Of a DNA stretch of 64,000 bases, positions 14,220 through 24,168 are shown one piece after another; position 1 is the stretch's first letter; every line of letters starts with the position of its first letter. The notes beneath the pieces are model-generated. The model searched no databases. It was not told where the DNA came from and saw nothing but the letters and a program-made list of their open reading frames with translations. The translations under genes and the position numbers were made by a program. Origin of the DNA: Clostridia bacterium (GTDB lineage Bacteria; Bacillota; Clostridia; UMGS1883); contig JBJDXJ010000026.1 of NCBI GenBank assembly GCA_051866635.1, positions 1 through 64,000 of the forward strand, written 5' to 3'.

Positions 14220-14316
14220 CCTTTCAATTATTTCTGAGGTGAAAAACTCCTTTTATCATACTATCATACTTCGACAAAAAATTCTACCCCCAATTTGAAA
14301 ATATGTCAAATTTTAT

Positions 14317-14345
14317 TTGACATTAATGGCTCAAGATGGTATTAT
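14317..14345 (+). promoter_or_regulatory. sigma-A promoter for asd-dapA-dapB
   Basis: TTGACA-17-TATTAT with TG upstream of the -10 box. Confidence 0.65.
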
Positions 14346-14402
14346 ATACGAAAGACTCTAAAGACTCTTGGAAATCAAATCATATTAAAGGTAGTGTTAG
14401 AA

Positions 14403-15401
14403 ATGAACAAGAAATTAACAGTAGCCGTTGTTGGTGCAACAGGCATGGTAGGCAGAACTTTCCTTAAGGTTCTTGAAGAAAAGAAGCTTCCTGTAGAAAC
14501 ATATTATCTCTTTGCTTCTAAAAAGAGTGCAGGCAGCAAAATAACCTTTATGGGCAAAGAATATGTTGTTGAAGAATTGACAGAAACATCCTTTGACCGT
14601 GGTATTGACATTGCTCTTTTCTCCGCAGGTGGTTCCACAAGTGAAAAGTTTGCTCCTATCGCTGCTTCTAAGGGCTGCATTGTAATAGATAACTCCTCTG
14701 CATGGAGAATGGATAAAGAGGTTCCTCTTGTAGTTCCCGAAGTTAACCCCGAAGATATTAAGTGGAATAAGGGTATTATTGCAAACCCCAACTGTTCTAC
14801 AATTCAGGCAATGGTTGCTCTTAAGCCTCTTGATGACAAGTATAAAATCAAAAGAGTGGTATATTCTACATACCAGGCTGTTTCCGGTGCAGGTGTAGGC
14901 GGTTGGAACGATTTGGAAAACGGTCTTAAAGGCGAAGCACCCAAGAAGTTCCCCCATCCCATCGCAGGCAACTGTCTGCCTCACATTGACGTTTTCCTTC
15001 CTAACGGTTACACTAAGGAAGAAGAAAAGATGATTAACGAAACAAGAAAGATTTTGAATAGACCCGACATGAAGATTACTGCTACAACAGTACGTGTTCC
15101 CGTATTTAACAGTCACAGTGAATCTATCAATGTTGAATTTGAAAAACCTTTTGATCTTGACGAACTTCGTGAAGTTCTTAAGAATGCTCCCGGCGTAATT
15201 GTTCAGGACGACACAGATAATAATGTATACCCCATGGCAATCACTGCTACAGGTACTGATGAAACTTACGTAGGCAGAATCAGACGCGACGAAAGCGTTG
15301 AGAACGGTGTAAACCTTTGGGTTGTTGCCGATAACATCAGAAAAGGTGCTGCTTCAAATGCAGTTCAGATTGCTGAAAAGCTTATTGAATACATGAACTA
15401 A
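14403..15401 (+). CDS. asd: Aspartate-semialdehyde dehydrogenase
   Basis: GATGMVG, DNSSAWRM, NPNCST catalytic Cys, YQAVSGAG, DNIRKGAA. Confidence 0.96.
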   Translation: MNKKLTVAVVGATGMVGRTFLKVLEEKKLPVETYYLFASKKSAGSKITFMGKEYVVEELTETSFDRGIDIALFSAGGSTSEKFAPIAASKGCIVIDNSSAWRMDKEVPLVVPEVNPEDIKWNKGIIANPNCSTIQAMVALKPLDDKYKIKRVVYSTYQAVSGAGVGGWNDLENGLKGEAPKKFPHPIAGNCLPHIDVFLPNGYTKEEEKMINETRKILNRPDMKITATTVRVPVFNSHSESINVEFEKPFDLDELREVLKNAPGVIVQDDTDNNVYPMAITATGTDETYVGRIRRDESVENGVNLWVVADNIRKGAASNAVQIAEKLIEYMN

Positions 15402-15425
15402 AATCATTAAGAAAGGATTATTGCT

Positions 15426-16316
15426 ATGACAAATAAGCCTATTTTCACAGGTTCCGGTGTTGCTCTCGTAACACCTTTCAACCCGGATTTCTCAATTGAT
15501 TTTGACACATTGGGCAAGTTGGTTGAATATCAGATTGAAAACGGCACAGACGCAATTATTGCATGCGGTACTACGGGCGAAAGTGCTACTTTAGATGATA
15601 AAGAGCATTTAAGTGTTGTTGAATACGTCATTAAAAAGGTTGATGGCAGAATTCCTGTTATAGCCGGCACAGGCAGTAATGATACACGTCACGGTGTTGC
15701 ACTTTGCAGAGAAGCTGCCGCATTGGGTGCTGACGCACTTCTTACCGTTACTCCTTACTACAATAAAACAAGCCAGCGTGGTTTAATAAAGCATTTTGAG
15801 CTTATGGCATCTGCATCTGATTGTCCTATGATTGTTTATAATGTTCCAAGCAGAACAGGTTTGAATGTTCTTCCTGAAACAATGGTTGAGCTTAGTAAGC
15901 ACGAAAACATCGTAGGCATCAAGGAAGCAAGCGGTAATCTTTCTCAAGTGGCAAAGCTCGCTTCCCTTGTAGGTGATAAAATTGATATCTATTCAGGTAA
16001 TGATGACCAGAATGTTCCTATCTTGTCCCTTGGCGGTGTAGGTACAATTTCTGTACTTGCCAATGTTGCACCTCGTAAGACTCACGATATGATTGCTTCT
16101 TTCCTGAACGGCGATGTGGAAACTGCAAGAAAACTTCAGCTTGAAGCAATAGAGCTTTGTGATGCTCTCTTCTGTGAAACTAATCCCATTCCCGTAAAGA
16201 AAGCATGTGAACTTTTGGGTCTTTGCCCCGGAACGCTCAGAATGCCTCTTTATGAGATTTCAGATAAAAATCAGGAAGTACTTAAGAAGGCTATGTTAAA
16301 TTACGGCATTTTATAA
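15426..16316 (+). CDS. dapA: 4-hydroxy-tetrahydrodipicolinate synthase
   Basis: GTTGE, PYYNK, YNVPSRTG, GIKEASG. Confidence 0.96.
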   Translation: MTNKPIFTGSGVALVTPFNPDFSIDFDTLGKLVEYQIENGTDAIIACGTTGESATLDDKEHLSVVEYVIKKVDGRIPVIAGTGSNDTRHGVALCREAAALGADALLTVTPYYNKTSQRGLIKHFELMASASDCPMIVYNVPSRTGLNVLPETMVELSKHENIVGIKEASGNLSQVAKLASLVGDKIDIYSGNDDQNVPILSLGGVGTISVLANVAPRKTHDMIASFLNGDVETARKLQLEAIELCDALFCETNPIPVKKACELLGLCPGTLRMPLYEISDKNQEVLKKAMLNYGIL

Positions 16317-16329
16317 TTTTAAATTTTAT

Positions 16330-16370
16330 CCTTACAAAAACACAGATGTACAATCTGTGTTTTTGTGAGG
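16330..16370 (+). terminator. Intercistronic 18-bp hairpin between dapA and dapB (partial terminator or stabiliser)
   Basis: CCTTACAAAAACACAGAT-gtaca-ATCTGTGTTTTTGTGAGG. Confidence 0.5.
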
Positions 16371-16397
16371 TTTACCCTACCGAAAGGATTGTTACCA

Positions 16398-17159
16398 ATG
16401 ACAAAAATTTTATTAAGCGGATGTAGCGGCAAAATGGGCAGAGTAATCGTTGCTCTTGCTCAGAATTATGAAAACTGCGAAATCGTCGGAGGCATTGATT
16501 TAGTGGACGATGGTACGCTTTCATTTCCTGTTTTTTCATCACCTGATAAAGTTAATGTGGAAAGTGACGTAATAATTGACTTTTCCCATCCCTCTTGCCT
16601 CGAAGGCATTATAAATTACGGTGCAGAAAATAAAATCCCTGTAGTTGTATGTACAACAGGTTTAAGCCTTGAACAGAAGAACTTTATTTATGAAAAGTCA
16701 AAATTTGTTGCTATTTTCTTCTCTGCAAATATGAGCCTCGGTGTTAACCTTATGGCAGATTTAGCAAAGAAAGCCACAATGGTTTTGGAAGATAAGTTTG
16801 ACATAGAGATTGTTGAAGCACATCACAACCGTAAATTGGATGCACCCAGCGGGACTGCTTTATATATTGCAGATTCTATAAATGAAGTCTGCAAGGAATG
16901 TAAAGAGTACGTATATGACCGTCACAGTGTCCGTAAAAAGCGTGAAAAGCAAGAAATAGGTATTCATGCAATCCGTGGCGGCACTATAGTCGGTGAGCAT
17001 ACTGTTATTTTTGCCGGTAACGATGAAATTATTGAAATTAAACACACTGCTCTTTCACGTGATGTTTTTGCAGAGGGTGCAATTTCAGCGGCAGTATTCT
17101 TAGAAGGAAAAACACCGGGTATGTATGACATGAACGATTTAATCGCTTCTAAAAACTAA
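16398..17159 (+). CDS. dapB: 4-hydroxy-tetrahydrodipicolinate reductase
   Basis: GCSGKMG, IDFS, CTTG, EAHHNRKLDAPSGTA, GEHTV. Confidence 0.95.
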   Translation: MTKILLSGCSGKMGRVIVALAQNYENCEIVGGIDLVDDGTLSFPVFSSPDKVNVESDVIIDFSHPSCLEGIINYGAENKIPVVVCTTGLSLEQKNFIYEKSKFVAIFFSANMSLGVNLMADLAKKATMVLEDKFDIEIVEAHHNRKLDAPSGTALYIADSINEVCKECKEYVYDRHSVRKKREKQEIGIHAIRGGTIVGEHTVIFAGNDEIIEIKHTALSRDVFAEGAISAAVFLEGKTPGMYDMNDLIASKN

Positions 17160-17198: not shown

Positions 17199-17265
17199 AA
17201 TATATTTATACGCCTTACCGGCCCACGGTAAGATTAAGCGTTTAAAATATTCGTGGGCAGAAAGG
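17199..17265 (+). ncRNA. Candidate cis-regulatory pseudoknot in the pfl 5' leader
   Basis: Stem CTTACC/GGTAAG extended by ACGC/GCGT. Loop GCCCAC is complementary to GTGGGC (17253-17258), directly before the AGAAAGG RBS. Confidence 0.55.
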
Positions 17266-17276
17266 TTTTGATTCAA

Positions 17277-19373
17277 ATGACAAACTACAAACAGTGGGAA
17301 GGTTTTGACAAAGGTACATGGGTTAAAGAAATCAATGTACGTAGCTTCATCAGACACAACTACACTCCCTACGATGGCAACGAAGACTTCCTTGAATCTC
17401 CTACAGAAGACACTTTAGCTCTTTGGAATCAGGTTCTTGAACTCAGTAAGCAGGAAAGAGAAGCAGGCGGAGTTCTTGACATGGATACAAAGATTATTTC
17501 TACAATCACTTCTCATGGTCCCGGATATCTTAACAAGGACATTGAAAAAATTGTCGGTTTCCAGACAGACAAGCCCTTTAAGCGTGCTCTTATGCCCTAT
17601 GGCGGTATCCGTATGGCTGAAAAAGCTTGTGCAGACAACGGCTACACAATCGACCCGGAAGTAAAGGAATTCTTTACAACACACAGAAAGACTCACAATG
17701 CAGGTGTATTTGATGCTTACACACCTGAAATGAGAGCTTGCCGTTCCAGCCATATCATCACAGGTCTTCCCGATGCTTACGGCAGAGGCAGAATTATCGG
17801 TGACTACCGCAGAGTTGCTCTTTATGGTGTTGACCGTCTTATCGAAGACAAGATGGAACAGAAGGCTACAACACGCTCTGCTATGTATTCTCAGGTAATC
17901 CGTGACAGAGAAGAATTAGCTGAACAGATTCGTGCTCTTGAAGCTCTTAAGCAGATGGCAGCAAGCTACGGCTATGACATTTCTCAGCCCGCAGCCAACA
18001 CACAGGAAGCTATTCAGTGGCTCTATTTTGGTTACCTTGCAGCTGTTAAGGAACAGAACGGTGCAGCAATGAGCCTTGGCAGAACTTCTACTTTCATCGA
18101 TATTTATGCTGAACGTGACCTTAAAAACGGCGTATTTACAGAAAAGCAGATTCAGGAATTTGTAGACCACTTCATTATGAAGCTTCGTCTTATCAAGTTT
18201 GCTCGTACACCTGAATACAATGCACTCTTCTCCGGTGACCCCCAGTGGGTAACAGAATCCATTGGTGGTGTTGCAATTGACGGCAGACACATGGTAACAA
18301 AGATGAGCTACCGTTACCTTCACACACTTAGAAACTTAGGTCCTGCTCCCGAACCCAACCTTACTGTTCTTTGGTCAACACGTTTGCCCGAAAACTTTAA
18401 GAAATTCTGTGCTAAGACTTCTATCGAAACAAGCTCTGTGCAGTATGAAAACGACGACCTTATGAGATTTACACATGGTGATGACTACGCTATCGCTTGT
18501 TGCGTATCTTCCATGAGAGTTGGTAAGGAAATGCAGTTCTTCGGTGCAAGAGCTAACCTTGCTAAGTGTCTTCTCTACGCTATAAACGGCGGTCGTGATG
18601 AAGTTTCCGGTAAGCAGGTTGGTCCTGAATACCGTCCTATTACAAGCGAATATCTTGACTATGATGAAGTAATGCACCGTTATGATGAAATGATGCGTTG
18701 GCTTGCAGGTGTATATGTAAATACACTTAACATCATTCACTATATGCATGATAAGTACTGCTACGAAAAGATTCAGATGGCTCTCCACGATAAGAAAGTT
18801 ACACGTTGGTTCGCAACAGGTATCGCAGGTCTTTCCGTTGTAGCCGACTCTCTTTCCGCAATTAAGTACGCAAAGGTTAAGGTTATCCGTGACGAAACAG
18901 GTCTCGCTGTAGACTACAAGGTTGAGGGCGACTTCCCCAAGTACGGTAACAATGATGACAGGGTTGACAATATTGCATATGATATTGTACACCGTTTCAT
19001 GGAACATGTAAGGAAGAATCATACATACCGTGATTCTATCCCCACAACAAGTATTCTTACAATTACTTCTAACGTTGTTTATGGTAAGAATACCGGTGCT
19101 ACACCTGATGGCAGAAAGAAGGGCGAACCCTTCGCTCCCGGTGCTAACCCCATGCACAGAAGAGATACACACGGTGCTGTAGCATCCCTTTCTTCTGTAG
19201 CTAAACTTCCCTTCATCGATGCTCAGGATGGTATTTCCAACACATTCTCTATCATCCCCGGTGCACTTGGTAAGGACGATAAGATTTTTGCAGGCGACAT
19301 CGAAGTTGATCTCGACTGTTCTAACGGTGCTTGCGGCACACCTACCCTTTTTGAAGGTCTTGACGCAGAATAA
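17277..19373 (+). CDS. pflB: Pyruvate formate-lyase catalytic subunit without the glycyl-radical domain; novel CX4C tail
   Basis: [17 protein letters not shown], active-site [19 protein letters not shown]. Ends [13 protein letters not shown] plus a foreign tail, with no RVSGY motif. Confidence 0.93.
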
Positions 19374-19414
19374 TTTGCATTTAATTAAATTTTAATTTTA
19401 GGAGGATAAACATT

Positions 19415-19657
19415 ATGGCAGCAACACAGAATCAAATTGACAACCTTGTATCACTTTTGGACGGTTATGTAGAAAAAGGCGGACATCACCTTAACGTAAA
19501 CGTATTTACAAAAGAAACTCTTCTTGACGCTCAGGCACATCCCGAACGTTATCCTCAGCTTACAGTTCGTGTAAGTGGTTACGCAGTTAACTTCATCAAG
19601 CTCACAAAGGAACAGCAGGATGAAGTTATCTCCAGAACATTCCACGACTCTATCTAA
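19415..19657 (+). CDS. Stand-alone glycyl-radical domain of PFL (GrcA/YfiD-like)
   Basis: Own AGGAGG RBS; GGHHLNVNV...[15 protein letters not shown] glycyl-radical motif. Confidence 0.93.
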
Positions 19658-20403
19658 TGAACGGACGTATTCACTCCAGCGAAAGCTTCGGTACTGTTGA
19701 CGGTCCGGGAGTACGATATGTACTGTTTATGCAGGGTTGTCCCATGCGTTGCAAGTATTGTCACAATCCCGACACATGGGAAGTATCAGGAGGATATGAT
19801 ATAACAGCATCCGAAGTTATCGCTGAATACAATCGTAACCGTGCTTTTTACAAAAAAGGCGGTATTACCGTTACAGGCGGAGAACCTTTGATGCAGGTTG
19901 ATTTCTTGATTGAGCTTTTCACTTTGGCAAAAAAAGAAAACATTCACACTTGTATTGATACTTCAGGTATAACATTCAAGCCTGATAATATGGAATATAT
20001 AAAAAAGCTGGACATTTTGATGGGATTAACAGACCTTGTTATGCTTGATATAAAGCATATTGACCCTATATGTCACAAGGAGCTAACAAAGCAGGATAAT
20101 TCAGGTATTTTGGCATTTGCTAAATATTTAGAAGGAAAAAATATCCCACTTTGGATAAGGCATGTTATTGTTGAAGGCATCACAGACGATAAAAATGACT
20201 TAATTAAATTAGGTAACTTTATCGGTAAACTGCATAATCTTCAGGCACTTGACGTTCTTCCCTATCATACAATGGGCGTGAATAAGTATAAGGAGCTTGG
20301 TATCCCCTATCCATTGGAGGGTATGCCTGCACTTACACCACAGGATGCATATAAGGCAAAGGAATTCATTATGGAAGGCATCCGTATGGTACATCACAAA
20401 TAA
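19657..20403 (+). CDS. pflA: Pyruvate formate-lyase activating enzyme (radical SAM)
   Basis: SFGTVDGPG, CPMRCKYCHNPD, TGGEP; TAATG overlap with the upstream gene. Confidence 0.95.
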   Translation: MNGRIHSSESFGTVDGPGVRYVLFMQGCPMRCKYCHNPDTWEVSGGYDITASEVIAEYNRNRAFYKKGGITVTGGEPLMQVDFLIELFTLAKKENIHTCIDTSGITFKPDNMEYIKKLDILMGLTDLVMLDIKHIDPICHKELTKQDNSGILAFAKYLEGKNIPLWIRHVIVEGITDDKNDLIKLGNFIGKLHNLQALDVLPYHTMGVNKYKELGIPYPLEGMPALTPQDAYKAKEFIMEGIRMVHHK

Positions 20404-20456: not shown

Positions 20457-21500
20457 TTATTTCTTTTTGTTTTTTCTAAGTAAAACAACGCTCTGTATAA
20501 CAAGGAATAAACAAATCATCGCCGCAACGGTAATATTTGTCCACCAAGCCTCGTCCAAACCTAAGGAGGAAACGATGTTCTTTATTGTACTTAAACTTAA
20601 TACACCAAAGAAAGTACCTATAATATTGCCTACGCCACCTGTTAGCATTGTACCGCCAATGATTGACGATGCAATGGCATTCATTTCAGCACCGCTGGCA
20701 TGAGAAGGTGAACCTGAACCCACGTGCATGAAATATACAAAACCGCCTATGCCTGCCAAAATACTGCACAAAAGATGTGCTGTGAACTTTGTCCGTTTAA
20801 CATTGATTCCAAGCATATTTGCACTGTGGTAATTTCCGCCTACTGCATAAAAGTTACGGCCTGTTTTTGACCATTTCAAAAATACAAAAAGTAGAAGTAC
20901 AATCACTACTGCCACAATTACCCCGGGTTCCACATAAGCGGGAACATATTTCCCCAGCTTATTGACGCTACCCATCCCGGGTACGTAAACACGTGTTCCC
21001 TTCAATGCTTTAAAGGCTTCGTTTTGCACATTAAACTGAGTAGAGTTGACAATTGTTGTCATACCCTTTGCAAAAAACATTCCCGCCAGTGTTACAATAA
21101 AGGGTTGAATTTCTAAGTACGCAACAAGATAACCTTGTACTATACCGAAGGCAACGCCTATTCCAAGTGCCAAAAGCATTGCAGTTGGAACATTGCCTCC
21201 GCCGTAATCAAGATGTACGGCACAGCTCATACATACAAGTGCTGTTAAAGTACCGACGGAAATATCAATACCGCCTGTAATCATTACAATGCTCATACCG
21301 CAGGAAAGAATAATCAATGCGGCATTATCGTTAAGTATGTTAAAGAAGGTCTGTGGTTTTGTAAAGCCTGAACCCAATAACACAACTGCACTTACATACA
21401 TAACAAGAAATACTACAATTGTAATTAAAAGAAGCAGGTTTGTATCGGTAATACCGCCCTTCTTTTTTAAAGAACCTTTACCAGTAGCCATTTTTGACAT
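20457..21500 (-). CDS. Sugar ABC transporter permease (YjfF-like)
   Basis: GGIDISVG, QPFIVTLAGM, GRNFYAVGGN, IIGGTMLTGG. Confidence 0.88.
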   Translation of the reverse strand: MSKMATGKGSLKKKGGITDTNLLLLITIVVFLVMYVSAVVLLGSGFTKPQTFFNILNDNAALIILSCGMSIVMITGGIDISVGTLTALVCMSCAVHLDYGGGNVPTAMLLALGIGVAFGIVQGYLVAYLEIQPFIVTLAGMFFAKGMTTIVNSTQFNVQNEAFKALKGTRVYVPGMGSVNKLGKYVPAYVEPGVIVAVVIVLLLFVFLKWSKTGRNFYAVGGNYHSANMLGINVKRTKFTAHLLCSILAGIGGFVYFMHVGSGSPSHASGAEMNAIASSIIGGTMLTGGVGNIIGTFFGVLSLSTIKNIVSSLGLDEAWWTNITVAAMICLFLVIQSVVLLRKNKKK

Positions 21501-21501
21501 A

Positions 21502-22593
21502 TTAACCTACCTCCTTTACATTCTTTACAGGAGCTATCTTCTTCCAGAGCTTACCTGTTTTTTCACGTACAACAGGAGCACTCATAACAACAAGAATTAT
21601 AACTACTACTGCCTTATAAGCAGGCAATGCATCGGAAGCAACGTTAAATTTAAAGAGCGTTGTTGTCAAAAACTGAATAACATATGCACCTAAAATTGAC
21701 GCTTTCATATCGAATTTTCCGCCACCAAGAGCATTTCCGCCAAGTGCAACTGCCAAAATGGCATCCATTTCAATGTCCTTTGCTATTACAGAATAGTTGA
21801 TTGTTGAAATACGGCTTACCTTAATAAGTGCGGCAACAGCAACGCAAAGACCCATAATAACATAAGATAAGAACTTAATAAACTGTGGATTAAGACCGTT
21901 AAGACGTGAAGATTCTGAATTAATACCTACCGCCTGAACATATAAGCCCAAATTTGTAAATTTCAGCACCAGTGCAATAACAATCATACAAGCTATTGCT
22001 ATAAACACAGGTGTAGGAACAGGTATTCCGGGAATAAAATTACCGAAATATCCGAAAACGGGCTCTTTTATAATCGGAAGCTGATTACCGTTAATCCATG
22101 CGGCAATAGAACGTCCTGCCGTAAAAAGTATAAGGGTTGCCACCATTGGCTGAATTTTAAAATATGCAACAAGTGTTCCGTTAAAAGCACCGAACAACAT
22201 ACTGACAAGGCATGCGATTAAAAATGCCACAATAATAGGTGCCTGCATTGTCTCAGGTCTTGCACCTGCATTACCGCAAAGAATACGAAGTATAACACTG
22301 CCTGCAATAGCAATTGTAGCACCTACAGAAATGTCCTGACCGCCTGATGCCGCAGTAACCAATGTCATACCGATAGCTAAGATTACAAGCTCCGAAGCAT
22401 TGTTCAGAATAGTTATTAAATAACCTGACAATACAGGGTCCCCTGCACTGTTCTGACCTAATGTAATTTTAAAGAAAGAAGGGTCTGCAATTAAATTAAA
22501 TATTACCAGAATGAGCAGTGCCGCAATAGGGATGAAAATCTGTTGGCGTACCAGTGATAATAAGAAATTCCCCTTTGGCTGTTTCTTTGCCAT
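21502..22593 (-). CDS. Sugar ABC transporter permease (YtfT-like)
   Basis: GQDISVG, IQPMVATL, EMDAILAVALGG. Confidence 0.88.
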   Translation of the reverse strand: MAKKQPKGNFLLSLVRQQIFIPIAALLILVIFNLIADPSFFKITLGQNSAGDPVLSGYLITILNNASELVILAIGMTLVTAASGGQDISVGATIAIAGSVILRILCGNAGARPETMQAPIIVAFLIACLVSMLFGAFNGTLVAYFKIQPMVATLILFTAGRSIAAWINGNQLPIIKEPVFGYFGNFIPGIPVPTPVFIAIACMIVIALVLKFTNLGLYVQAVGINSESSRLNGLNPQFIKFLSYVIMGLCVAVAALIKVSRISTINYSVIAKDIEMDAILAVALGGNALGGGKFDMKASILGAYVIQFLTTTLFKFNVASDALPAYKAVVVIILVVMSAPVVREKTGKLWKKIAPVKNVKEVG

Positions 22594-22594
22594 A

Positions 22595-24106
22595 TCAACC
22601 CTCACCTCCTGCAATAGTAGTCATAATTGTATTTTGTGTCAGCCCATCACCCGAAAGCTCACCTACAACCTTTCTGTCACGCATGACAACAAGTTTGGAA
22701 CATGTTCTGAGCATTTCATCAATTTCGGAAGAAATAAAAGTAATGCTCTTTCCTTCTTTGGCAAGCTTTAAAACAAGCTTCTGAATTTCAATCTTTGTTC
22801 CCACATCAATACCGCGTGTGGGTTCGTCAAGTATAAGATATGAAGGATTTGTCAAAAGCCATCTTGCTAAGATTACTTTCTGCTGATTGCCGCCTGACAG
22901 TGACTTAATAGGCGTGTTTGATGATGCTGTTTTAATTTCCAGAAGTTTTATATATTCATCAGCAAATGCCTCTGCTTTTGCCCTTGAAAATGGTTTGAAG
23001 AAACCTTTCATAACCTGAAGTGCAAGAATAATATTTTCCCTTACAGACAAATCGCCCACAATGCCGTCACGTTTTCTGTCTTCGGGCAGATAGCCAATGC
23101 CGTGCCTCATTGCATCCAAAGGTTTTGAAATTTTAACCTTTTCACCGTTTACAAAAACTTCTCCTCCGGTGGTTTTATCAGCACCGAAAATTGCCCTGAC
23201 ACATTCACTTCTGCCGGAACCTAAAAGCCCTGTGAAACCATTTACTTCACCTTTATGCACAGAAAAATCAAATGGACTGATACCTGATGTGCTTGTAAGG
23301 TTTTTAACCTCAAGAACGGGAATCTCATTATCAAAATCTTCTGCCTTATTATCGTGATTTTTAATTTCCGAAAGGTCGTCCAGTTCCTTACCCAGCATTT
23401 TTGATACAAGTTGCACTCTGGGAAGTTCTGCTATAGGATATTCGCCTACTAATTGCCCGTCACGAAGAACAGTAATGCGGTCACAGACCTCATATACCTG
23501 ATCAAGAAAGTGTGTAACAAATATTATACCTACGCCGTTAGCTTTCAGCTCACGCATTAATTTGAACAGCTTTTCAACTTCCTGTTCATCCAAGGAAGAT
23601 GTGGGTTCGTCAAGAATTAAAACTTTACAATCCATATCAACTGCACGGGCAATTGCCACCATCTGTTGTACTGCAATAGAGCAAGTTCCCAACTGCTGAG
23701 TGGGCTTTGCAGGAATACCCAATTCTTCCAGAATACGTCCGGCATCTGCGTTCATTTTTTTCCAGCTTACTCCTGCACCTTTTTTTCTGGCAATGTACAT
23801 ATTCTCCGCCACTGTAAGATTAGGACAAAGGGTAATTTCCTGATAAACAGTGCTTATACCTGTTCTTTGTGCATCTTGAGGGGATTTAATATTAACAGGA
23901 TTGTCCTCTATATAAATCTCACCACCATCTTTTTCATGCACACCTGTGAGAACTTTTATAAGTGTTGACTTACCGGCACCATTCTCACCCATAAGGGCAT
24001 GAATTTCCCCTCCTCGCAATGTAAAATCCACGTTATGGAGAGCTTTTACACCGGGGAAATATTTGCAAATTCCTCTCAGCTTTAAAACAGCGTTGTCTTT
24101 TTCCAT
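22595..24106 (-). CDS. Sugar ABC transporter ATP-binding protein (tandem NBD, YtfR/RbsA-like)
   Basis: GENGAGKST, LDEPTS, LSGGNQQK, LDEPTRGID. Confidence 0.92.
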   Translation of the reverse strand: MEKDNAVLKLRGICKYFPGVKALHNVDFTLRGGEIHALMGENGAGKSTLIKVLTGVHEKDGGEIYIEDNPVNIKSPQDAQRTGISTVYQEITLCPNLTVAENMYIARKKGAGVSWKKMNADAGRILEELGIPAKPTQQLGTCSIAVQQMVAIARAVDMDCKVLILDEPTSSLDEQEVEKLFKLMRELKANGVGIIFVTHFLDQVYEVCDRITVLRDGQLVGEYPIAELPRVQLVSKMLGKELDDLSEIKNHDNKAEDFDNEIPVLEVKNLTSTSGISPFDFSVHKGEVNGFTGLLGSGRSECVRAIFGADKTTGGEVFVNGEKVKISKPLDAMRHGIGYLPEDRKRDGIVGDLSVRENIILALQVMKGFFKPFSRAKAEAFADEYIKLLEIKTASSNTPIKSLSGGNQQKVILARWLLTNPSYLILDEPTRGIDVGTKIEIQKLVLKLAKEGKSITFISSEIDEMLRTCSKLVVMRDRKVVGELSGDGLTQNTIMTTIAGGEG

Positions 24107-24131
24107 GTTATCGCCTCCATTATATCTAATT

Positions 24132-24168
24132 AAAAACACGCGGTGCGGATTCACTCCGTACCGCGTGT
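24132..24168 (-). terminator. Hairpin with U-tract after the substrate-binding protein gene
   Basis: ACACGCGGTACGGA/TCCGCACCGCGTGT followed by T-run on the minus strand; a typical stoichiometry element in ABC operons. Confidence 0.6.

Follow-up and report, generated by a model that had tools for sequence, protein, structure and literature searches.

A conserved two-cysteine tail at the break point of a naturally split pyruvate formate-lyase

For many gut and rumen anaerobes, pyruvate formate-lyase (PFL) is the central enzyme of pyruvate cleavage, and its radical is destroyed by oxygen. Here we describe a form of this enzyme that is encoded in two pieces in a Clostridia bacterium of the GTDB lineage UMGS1883, and the acidic tail with two cysteines in which its large subunit ends. 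The window, i.e. the whole stretch of DNA that was analysed, comprises positions 1 to 64,000 of contig JBJDXJ010000026.1 (assembly GCA_051866635.1). Three tightly packed genes, which encode the PFL body, the small radical subunit GrcA3 and the activating enzyme PflA, occupy 17253-20403 of its + strand (Table 1).

Table 1. Features of the split PFL operon and of the tail of its large subunit
Feature	Position	Strand	Remarks
PFL large (catalytic) subunit	17277-19373	+	698 aa; ATG at 17277, stop TAA 19371-19373
Acidic C-terminal tail	19281-19370	+	30 aa; 7 acidic and 1 basic residue, net charge -6
11-residue segment	19284-19316	+	F invariant; G and D at least 90% conserved
Cys pair C-S-N-G-A-C	19317-19334	+	TGT 19317-19319, TGC 19332-19334; invariant in 40/40 aligned tails
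PTLFEGLD motif	19341-19364	+	at least 90% conserved; short helix predicted with low confidence
Shine-Dalgarno sequence AGGAGG of grcA3	19400-19405	+	9 nt upstream of ATG; read from the sequence
GrcA3, detachable glycyl-radical subunit	19415-19657	+	80 aa; RVSGYAV, radical Gly codon 19577-19579
PflA, radical S-adenosylmethionine activating enzyme	19657-20403	+	TIGR02493 295.6 bits (cut-off 231.75); CPMRCKYC motif

The large open reading frame (ORF) is matched by the PFL model TIGR01255 with 1105.2 bits (cut-off 994.2) and by PF02901 with an E-value of 2.8e-225, and it carries the active-site cysteine pair in the motif AIACCVSS; both residues, C408 and C409, are invariant across 119 sequences. 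The frame is open from a GTG at 17253, but homologue length favours the ATG at 17277: protein P0001, whose tail is 100% identical, has the same 698 residues as the window body. An AlphaFold model of the body (119-row alignment) has a mean predicted local distance difference test score (pLDDT) of 80, and its superposition on E. coli PFL (2pfl_A) gives a template-modelling score of 0.91 at 64% identity. The TIGR01255 match covers only positions 1-665 of 744, and the large ORF lacks the glycyl-radical motif RVSGYAV, which is found on the next ORF, as in a split form of the PFL family. This next ORF encodes a free-standing small protein that scores 168.2 bits (cut-off 158) against the NCBIfam family “autonomous glycyl radical cofactor GrcA3” (NF038360, whose model covers the small subunit only), matches positions 663-743 of TIGR01255 and aligns with residues 683-758 of E. 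coli PFL. Taken together, the two ORFs account for the PFL model with nothing missing, with the cut exactly at the start of the glycyl-radical domain, and therefore the 30 residues that end the large subunit are extra sequence at the split point. A split intein, a frameshift and a pseudogene were ruled out by this lossless tiling, by the Shine-Dalgarno sequence and ATG that grcA3 has of its own, and by the same layout in 80 species-level loci. A metagenome DNA contig of a close relative (run X1) spans the tail/grcA3 junction and has indels only in the 41-nt spacer (19378, 19394), the pattern that a non-coding gap separating two real genes should show. Word shares in 10 sequencing runs were small (at most 0.07), and no RNA contig crossed the junction in the three of these runs that were compared with it.

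The tail begins after ...GALGKDD, where the TIGR01255 match to the large ORF ends, and its cysteines sit 18 and 13 residues from the C-terminus. Its coordinates and sequence had been given in an earlier note on the window and are exact on translation; the note's description of an acidic tail in place of the radical domain likewise agrees with our result, in that the model match stops at position 665, the radical domain lies on the following ORF and the tail stands where the covalent link to it would be. The idea that the tail is a degenerate glycine loop was rejected, since the hhalign probability of the tail against GrcA3 is only 0.1%. In the ESM Atlas, residues 667-698 gave matches only below 0.9, to Gly-radical clusters, which we treat as a lead at most.

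For the tail alignment, the window and 39 loci from genome_contigs served as 40 species-level representatives. The only invariant columns are F5, C15 and C20, followed by the D, G, A, P, T, L, F, G, L and D columns, which are at least 90% conserved. Exactly two cysteines are present in 37 of the 40 tails and three in the remaining 3. Against the 30 loci whose tails equal that of the window in length, the window codons differ 372 times synonymously and 162 times by replacement; at the two cysteine codons there are 29 synonymous differences (23 and 6) and no replacement. The alignment of split-PFL C-termini that the earlier note had proposed thus brings out the cysteine pair as their most conserved feature. 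All 120 top-ranking homologues of the tail in the database have a length of ~700 residues and share two cysteines and PTLFE-LD, but their conservation is circular because this set was ranked by likeness to the tail. Judging from the alignment and the codon comparison, we regard it as firm that the tail is real and under selection, and that a two-cysteine module is family-wide in split PFL; the tail is probably a working part of the enzyme.

When one genome per species was scanned, a relative was encoded in 566 of 600 candidate stretches, from which the best 80 loci were retained. When the ORFs of these loci and of the window were clustered all-against-all, the only recurrent genes were those for the body, GrcA3, PflA and a further small protein, here called protein X. 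We define the module as two cysteines, the second of them three residues before P-[TN]-L-x-[EDQ]-G-[LI]-[DE], located between the ALGK of the body and grcA3; the window tail has this arrangement. Three layouts occur among the best 80 loci, with a fused long tail in 40, a separate protein X in 38 and a tail with only a GCC motif in 2. The 11-residue segment is common to all split-PFL large subunits, whether their tails are long, short or end in CC. In the fused loci (L005-L044), which derive from metagenome-assembled genomes (MAGs) labelled Acutalibacteraceae, Oscillospiraceae, Clostridia, Ruminococcus and in some cases Lachnospiraceae, every tail has at least two cysteines and 39 of 40 have P-[TN]-[LIM]; L036, for example, shows the same two-Cys/PTLFEGLD pattern as the window. 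Fused variants with long linkers are seen in L085 and L086 (...DCTNMACSVPTLHEGLD), and one with extra Cys in L087 (GCCCGAGAC). In one related MAG (L014, 70-871), the split PFL operon is immediately preceded by a stretch encoding the C-terminal portion of another glycyl radical enzyme.

The 38 loci with protein X, mostly labelled Lachnospiraceae, have a body with a short, cysteine-free tail ending ...VFAGDIELDLNK, and all 38 contain an extra gene of ~62-80 codons between body and grcA3; these three-piece operons are the Lachnospiraceae-type loci within L045-L084. The C-terminal part of X aligns with the window tail (hhalign 96.5%, E 7.2e-10, 22 columns), and its N-terminal half copies the helix and strand of GrcA3 (hhalign 96.1%, E 3.7e-9, 33 columns). 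The two halves are joined by a variable linker of 12-25 residues, and the module reads GC-xD-C-x6-C-xxPTLxEGLD, usually with three cysteines (C-x2-C-x6-C). X therefore resembles the window tail in its homologous C-terminal DC..AC-xxPTLxEGLD and differs from it in being a separate polypeptide with a GrcA3-like half, a linker and, as a rule, a third cysteine. No Pfam or NCBIfam family exceeds its cut-off on either the tail or X. The earlier note had held that cysteines missing from orthologous tails would speak against a role for the pair. On the surface they are missing, in 38 of 80 loci, but this is undone by the finding that 38 of 38 encode the module on the neighbouring X.

The third layout retains the cysteines in a different form. 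L050 (3085-3153) and L057 (3085-3159), as well as L088 (G639:C7) from the class sample, where the view is limited to 1 kb around the match, have no PTL motif and no gene between body and grcA3, and their tails end ...QGCCEDNID, ...SQGCCEGTVGCE and ...KGCCEFNAE, respectively. Nowhere within the 6.1- and 4.4-kb loci of L050 and L057 is a PTL module found. The adjacent cysteines of these tails echo the CC pair in the active site of the enzyme itself. Across all layouts the cysteines are either adjacent (CC) or spaced as CX2C, CX3C, CX4C, CX5C or CX6C. CX4C, the pattern named in the earlier note, is the commonest of these but is not fixed. In the sequences compared, a cysteine pair is the one element that every split PFL retains, supplied either in cis or in trans.

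Could the tail simply be a neutral leftover of the gene split that resembles a functional motif by chance? Nothing beyond the shortness of the motif favours this explanation, and the conservation across families, the synonymous excess and the recurrence of the module in trans all argue against it, so that we consider it extremely improbable.

The window's split PFL is the sole PFL of its genome. A second glycyl radical enzyme is encoded on G000 contig 9 (1312-2898, - strand; L001) in a 791-residue frame that scores 134 bits for Gly_radical and only 149 bits for the PFL model; it is probably of the PFL2/dehydratase type. Split bodies are 71-90% identical across families, and those from other families share 72-90% identity with the window body. 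By comparison, the window body is only ~65% identical to the one-piece PFLs of same-genus (L092, L093) and same-family (L094) genomes and of E. coli, and 61% identical to that of a same-order genome (L095). The congeners G790, G664, G794, G796 and G791 (L092, L093) have an ordinary one-piece PFL, and among 41 relatives a full-length PFL is present in 5 of 9 other same-genus genomes. Split forms are sporadic among the 41 relatives (G804, G638 and G585; in G795 the gene is cut by the contig end). In an even sample across the class, the module was found in 14 of 399 scored genomes, 11 times in frames of ~707-730 residues (window included), twice in frames of 73-74 residues and once as a partial match; in a sample of the phylum, a GrcA3 scoring above the cut-off was present in 4 of 401 genomes. 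With distant one-piece PFLs in its congeners and closer split bodies in other families, the split operon looks as if it had spread horizontally and displaced the resident PFL.

To follow the module through the family, a FastTree phylogeny of the core, with the tail columns removed, was calculated for 59 split bodies with complete starts and 4 one-piece PFLs as outgroup; 23 loci with no determined body start codon (cut bodies or an unmatched N-terminal motif) and database proteins were left out. The split bodies form a clade of their own (support 0.956). Within it, a six-member clade (0.948) contains 3 fused and 3 separate forms and is sister (0.997) to 29 fused forms. Because inner nodes are weak, we limit ourselves to the claim that fusion or fission of the module happened more than once. 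The intermixing of fused and separate forms in one clade implies that the module works in cis or in trans. Closely related bodies that differ in having the module fused or separate (L041/L084, L044/L049 and L042/L047) provide a natural fusion/fission series.

What does the module do? On these sequence comparisons we hold it to be firm that the PFL is split and that its tail is real, selected and modular; the mechanism is not firm. The reading that we favour, tentatively and at somewhat less than an even chance, is that the tail acts as a thiol arm on a flexible tether and is peculiar to split PFL. In this reading the enzyme consists of the 698-residue body and the 80-residue GrcA3, which is activated by PflA, and the tail presents in order a strand-like 11-residue segment, a Cys-loop-Cys and the short amphipathic acidic helix PTLFEGLD. 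Whenever GrcA3 is absent or exchanging, the Cys-Cys loop and the radical pocket of the body would be exposed, and the dithiol of the arm could keep the active-site cysteines reduced, resolve adducts on them, or donate a hydrogen to a stray radical. Alternatively, the arm may sense oxidation and gate the docking or activation of fresh GrcA3. In either case, thioredoxin or another reductant of the cell would then restore the arm; a thioredoxin gene is present in the genome, which merely permits this idea. Such an arm would resemble the C-terminal dithiol of ribonucleotide reductase (RNR) in its logic, while being non-homologous and not required in every turnover.

We give a thiol role the greatest weight because the thiols are always kept, their spacing is free, extra cysteines are common and the tethers are flexible and acidic. 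The thiols even persist where the helix does not, since the GCC-only tails keep their cysteines in the absence of both the PTL motif and X. The variable spacing also suits reactive or resolving thiols better than a fixed metal geometry.

In the AlphaFold monomer the tail has a pLDDT of 40-52, with a short helix at TLFEGLD, and its position is not readable; X modelled alone has a mean pLDDT of 56.6 with helices at 3-14 and 54-57, and the position of its module is not readable either. The low predicted order fits a flexible arm or a fold that depends on a partner; it is compatible with flexibility and is no proof of it. A complex prediction in which tail residues 667-698 were offered as a separate partner to body 1-666 and GrcA3, each with its own alignment, gave no answer (ipSAE 0.00) and speaks neither for nor against contact.

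Several observations weigh against the thiol arm. Nothing shows where the arm goes, and its placement in the AlphaFold monomer is of low confidence; the 80 loci share no thioredoxin-like gene next to the operon. Established PFL chemistry involves no oxidation of C418/C419 (E. coli numbering) in each cycle, which makes the need for a reductant hypothetical. The conservation of PTLFEGLD in 78 of 80 loci comes close to that of the cysteines, an indication of specific contact with a protein and not simply of a loose thiol. The poor binding and activation of the spare part by a truncated E. coli body that lacks extra recognition elements (PMC8683613, considered below) fits docking equally well. Finally, there is no homology to RNR tails by BLASTP or in a profile search of the PDB.

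The conservation of the helix leads to a second explanation, in which the module is an assembly or recognition element: a cysteine-stapled loop and an amphipathic helix would bind GrcA3 and/or PflA and so confer the affinity and positioning for which one-piece PFL has its covalent link, with the cysteines in a structural role. As far as the accessible text of the E. coli work goes (PMC8683613, Andorfer et al. 2021), the truncated enzyme tPFL(1-695) shows no measurable binding of YfiD and 32-fold less radical installation than oxygen-cleaved PFL, and both PFL residues 696-733 and the disordered N-terminus of YfiD matter. Natural split PFLs have neither the 696-733 element nor the YfiD N-terminus, GrcA3 being devoid of any YfiD-like N-terminal extension, and carry the tail or X instead; this is the main support for a docking role. 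The conserved PTLFEGLD, predicted to be helical, fits as well, and so does the joining of the module, in three-piece operons, to a copy of the GrcA3 docking helix and strand. On the other hand, three genomes make do with a GCC tail and have no PTL helix and no X, and a loop of purely structural function should not retain both cysteines while its length varies between 0 and 6 residues. Moreover, strict anaerobes seldom have structural disulfides in their cytoplasm. A docking or assembly role is a serious alternative, if rather less likely than not.

A metal site is a third candidate. The two cysteines, together with ligands from the tail of the second subunit of the dimer or from another protein, might bind Zn, Fe or a bridging iron-sulfur (Fe-S) cluster that organises or regulates the radical domain. 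Parallels exist in the Zn(Cys)4 site of class III RNR and in the Fe-S small subunits of benzylsuccinate synthase, and many variants of the module have three or four cysteines. A 14-residue stretch of the tail is weakly similar to the first half of the loop of plant-type [2Fe-2S] ferredoxins (NCBIfam BenC 13.4 bits against a cut-off of 430, E 0.033; PDB 1krh, E 1.1), both matches being far below threshold. A plant-type [2Fe-2S] loop (C-x4-C-x2-C...C) was rejected, given that the tail has only two cysteines, a proline at the position of the third and variable spacing. More generally, a metal site is opposed by the 37 of 40 aligned fused tails that have only two cysteines and by the unfixed spacing, which includes adjacent CC. 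No additional Cys or His characteristic of the split family was noticed, though split and one-piece PFLs were not compared systematically, and no Fe-S or zinc-ribbon family matched. The class III RNR site, with two CX2C pairs, also differs from the single cysteine pair of variable spacing seen here. We regard a metal site as unlikely.

Docking, thiol and metal roles could be combined. A broader version of the thiol arm would be an exchangeable “service arm”, fused or free, that repairs or protects the Cys-Cys radical site and controls re-arming with fresh GrcA3, i.e. a modular and undescribed oxygen-resilience system; this is a speculative extension that we think may well prove wrong.

The stop codon of grcA3 and the start codon of pflA overlap (TAATG, 19655-19659), an arrangement suggesting that translation of the radical subunit is coupled to that of its activase. 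Judged by eye only, with no library run, the upstream flank (14295-17159, + strand) appears to contain asd, dapA and dapB and the downstream flank (20457-24154, - strand) two ABC sugar-type permeases and an ATPase; by the same inspection no redox partner gene adjoins the operon.

To our knowledge, the sole known repair of oxygen-damaged PFL is the GrcA/YfiD spare part. A natural clade with a permanently detachable radical domain that is always paired with a two-cysteine module therefore bears on the engineering of oxygen-tolerant or modular glycyl radical enzymes. It also offers a ready-made system for studying radical-domain docking, activation and protection, questions that are open in the accessible text of the E. 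coli work (PMC8683613) and of a 2026 review of glycyl radical enzymes (PMC13450708). The latter, in the text accessible to us, treats YfiD-type spare parts as the only known case, and a search of it for “split” gives no naturally split PFL. In the literature searched, which does not cover subscription journals or supplements, no paper deals with a naturally split PFL or its tail, and the name GrcA3 occurs in 0 papers. The earlier note's description of the system as undescribed can therefore be kept for papers in this literature, but not without qualification, since GrcA3 is already named by NCBIfam and the PDB holds a related large subunit. The entries 38lb_A (739 residues) and 38la_A (687 residues), both titled “Formate acetyltransferase”, are the best solved-structure match to the body (1157 bits vs. 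1000 for E. coli PFL). The 38lb_A chain ends ~50 residues past ALGK with no GrcA3-like part, and the two entries, both very recent, give the impression of a truncated body that was deposited in the first case with a tail and in the second without. The tail of 38lb_A starts SGNVMFGECD and contains cysteine; it has no match to the window-tail profile. Neither entry is in the Foldseek copy of the PDB that ends 2026-04-08, and no paper was found for either; an 8-residue motif back-translated from the 38lb alignment gave 4 matches in metagenome_contigs, none of them PFL.

Of the known systems, RNR was the one to which the earlier note had likened the tail. PFL and RNR share the barrel fold, and the E. 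coli K-12 nrdA product does end in an acidic tail with CESGAC (...EDAQDDLVPSIQDDGCESGACKI, i.e. ...DDGCESGACKI), as the note had said; its cysteines are C754 and C759. Both tails are acidic C-terminal extensions with C-x-x-G-A-C in enzymes of the barrel radical superfamily, and the window tail shares with RNR tails a cysteine pair within the last ~20 residues of an acidic tail of low pLDDT. The window tail differs in the conserved helix motif that follows the cysteines and in the variable spacing between them. No BLASTP alignment with NrdA is obtained at E<=100, and a PDB search with a profile built from the 40 tails returns no RNR chain at E<=10, so that the RNR-like identity of the tail is not upheld beyond the shared C-x-x-G-A-C. 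A true RNR-type shuttle, related to the NrdA tail and re-reducing an active-site disulfide through CX4C as an obligatory step of catalysis or re-activation, draws on the common fold and the similar ending. Under the established PFL mechanism the active-site cysteines are not oxidised in each turnover, in contrast to RNR with its per-turnover disulfide, and re-reduction in every cycle would therefore not be needed. Furthermore, the one-piece PFLs of congeners have no such tail, which implies that catalysis itself does not need it. For these reasons an RNR-type shuttle seems to us very unlikely; the tail is not, by these searches, a homologue of the RNR tail and may have a loose functional likeness to it as a mobile dithiol.

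A further close comparison is with E. coli PflB and its spare part GrcA/YfiD, including the engineered pair tPFL(1-695) and YfiD (PDB 2pfl, 6owr). Both systems belong to the same family, and in both a small, PflA-activated protein provides β10, the Gly loop and the C-terminal helix in trans, with docking and activation appearing to need elements outside the radical domain. The window enzyme departs from this scheme in that its split is constitutive, with the cut at about E. coli residue 678-682, and in that its GrcA3 also carries the preceding helix and has no disordered N-terminus of 60 residues as in YfiD. Unlike E. coli PFL, the window body ends in the two-cysteine tail.

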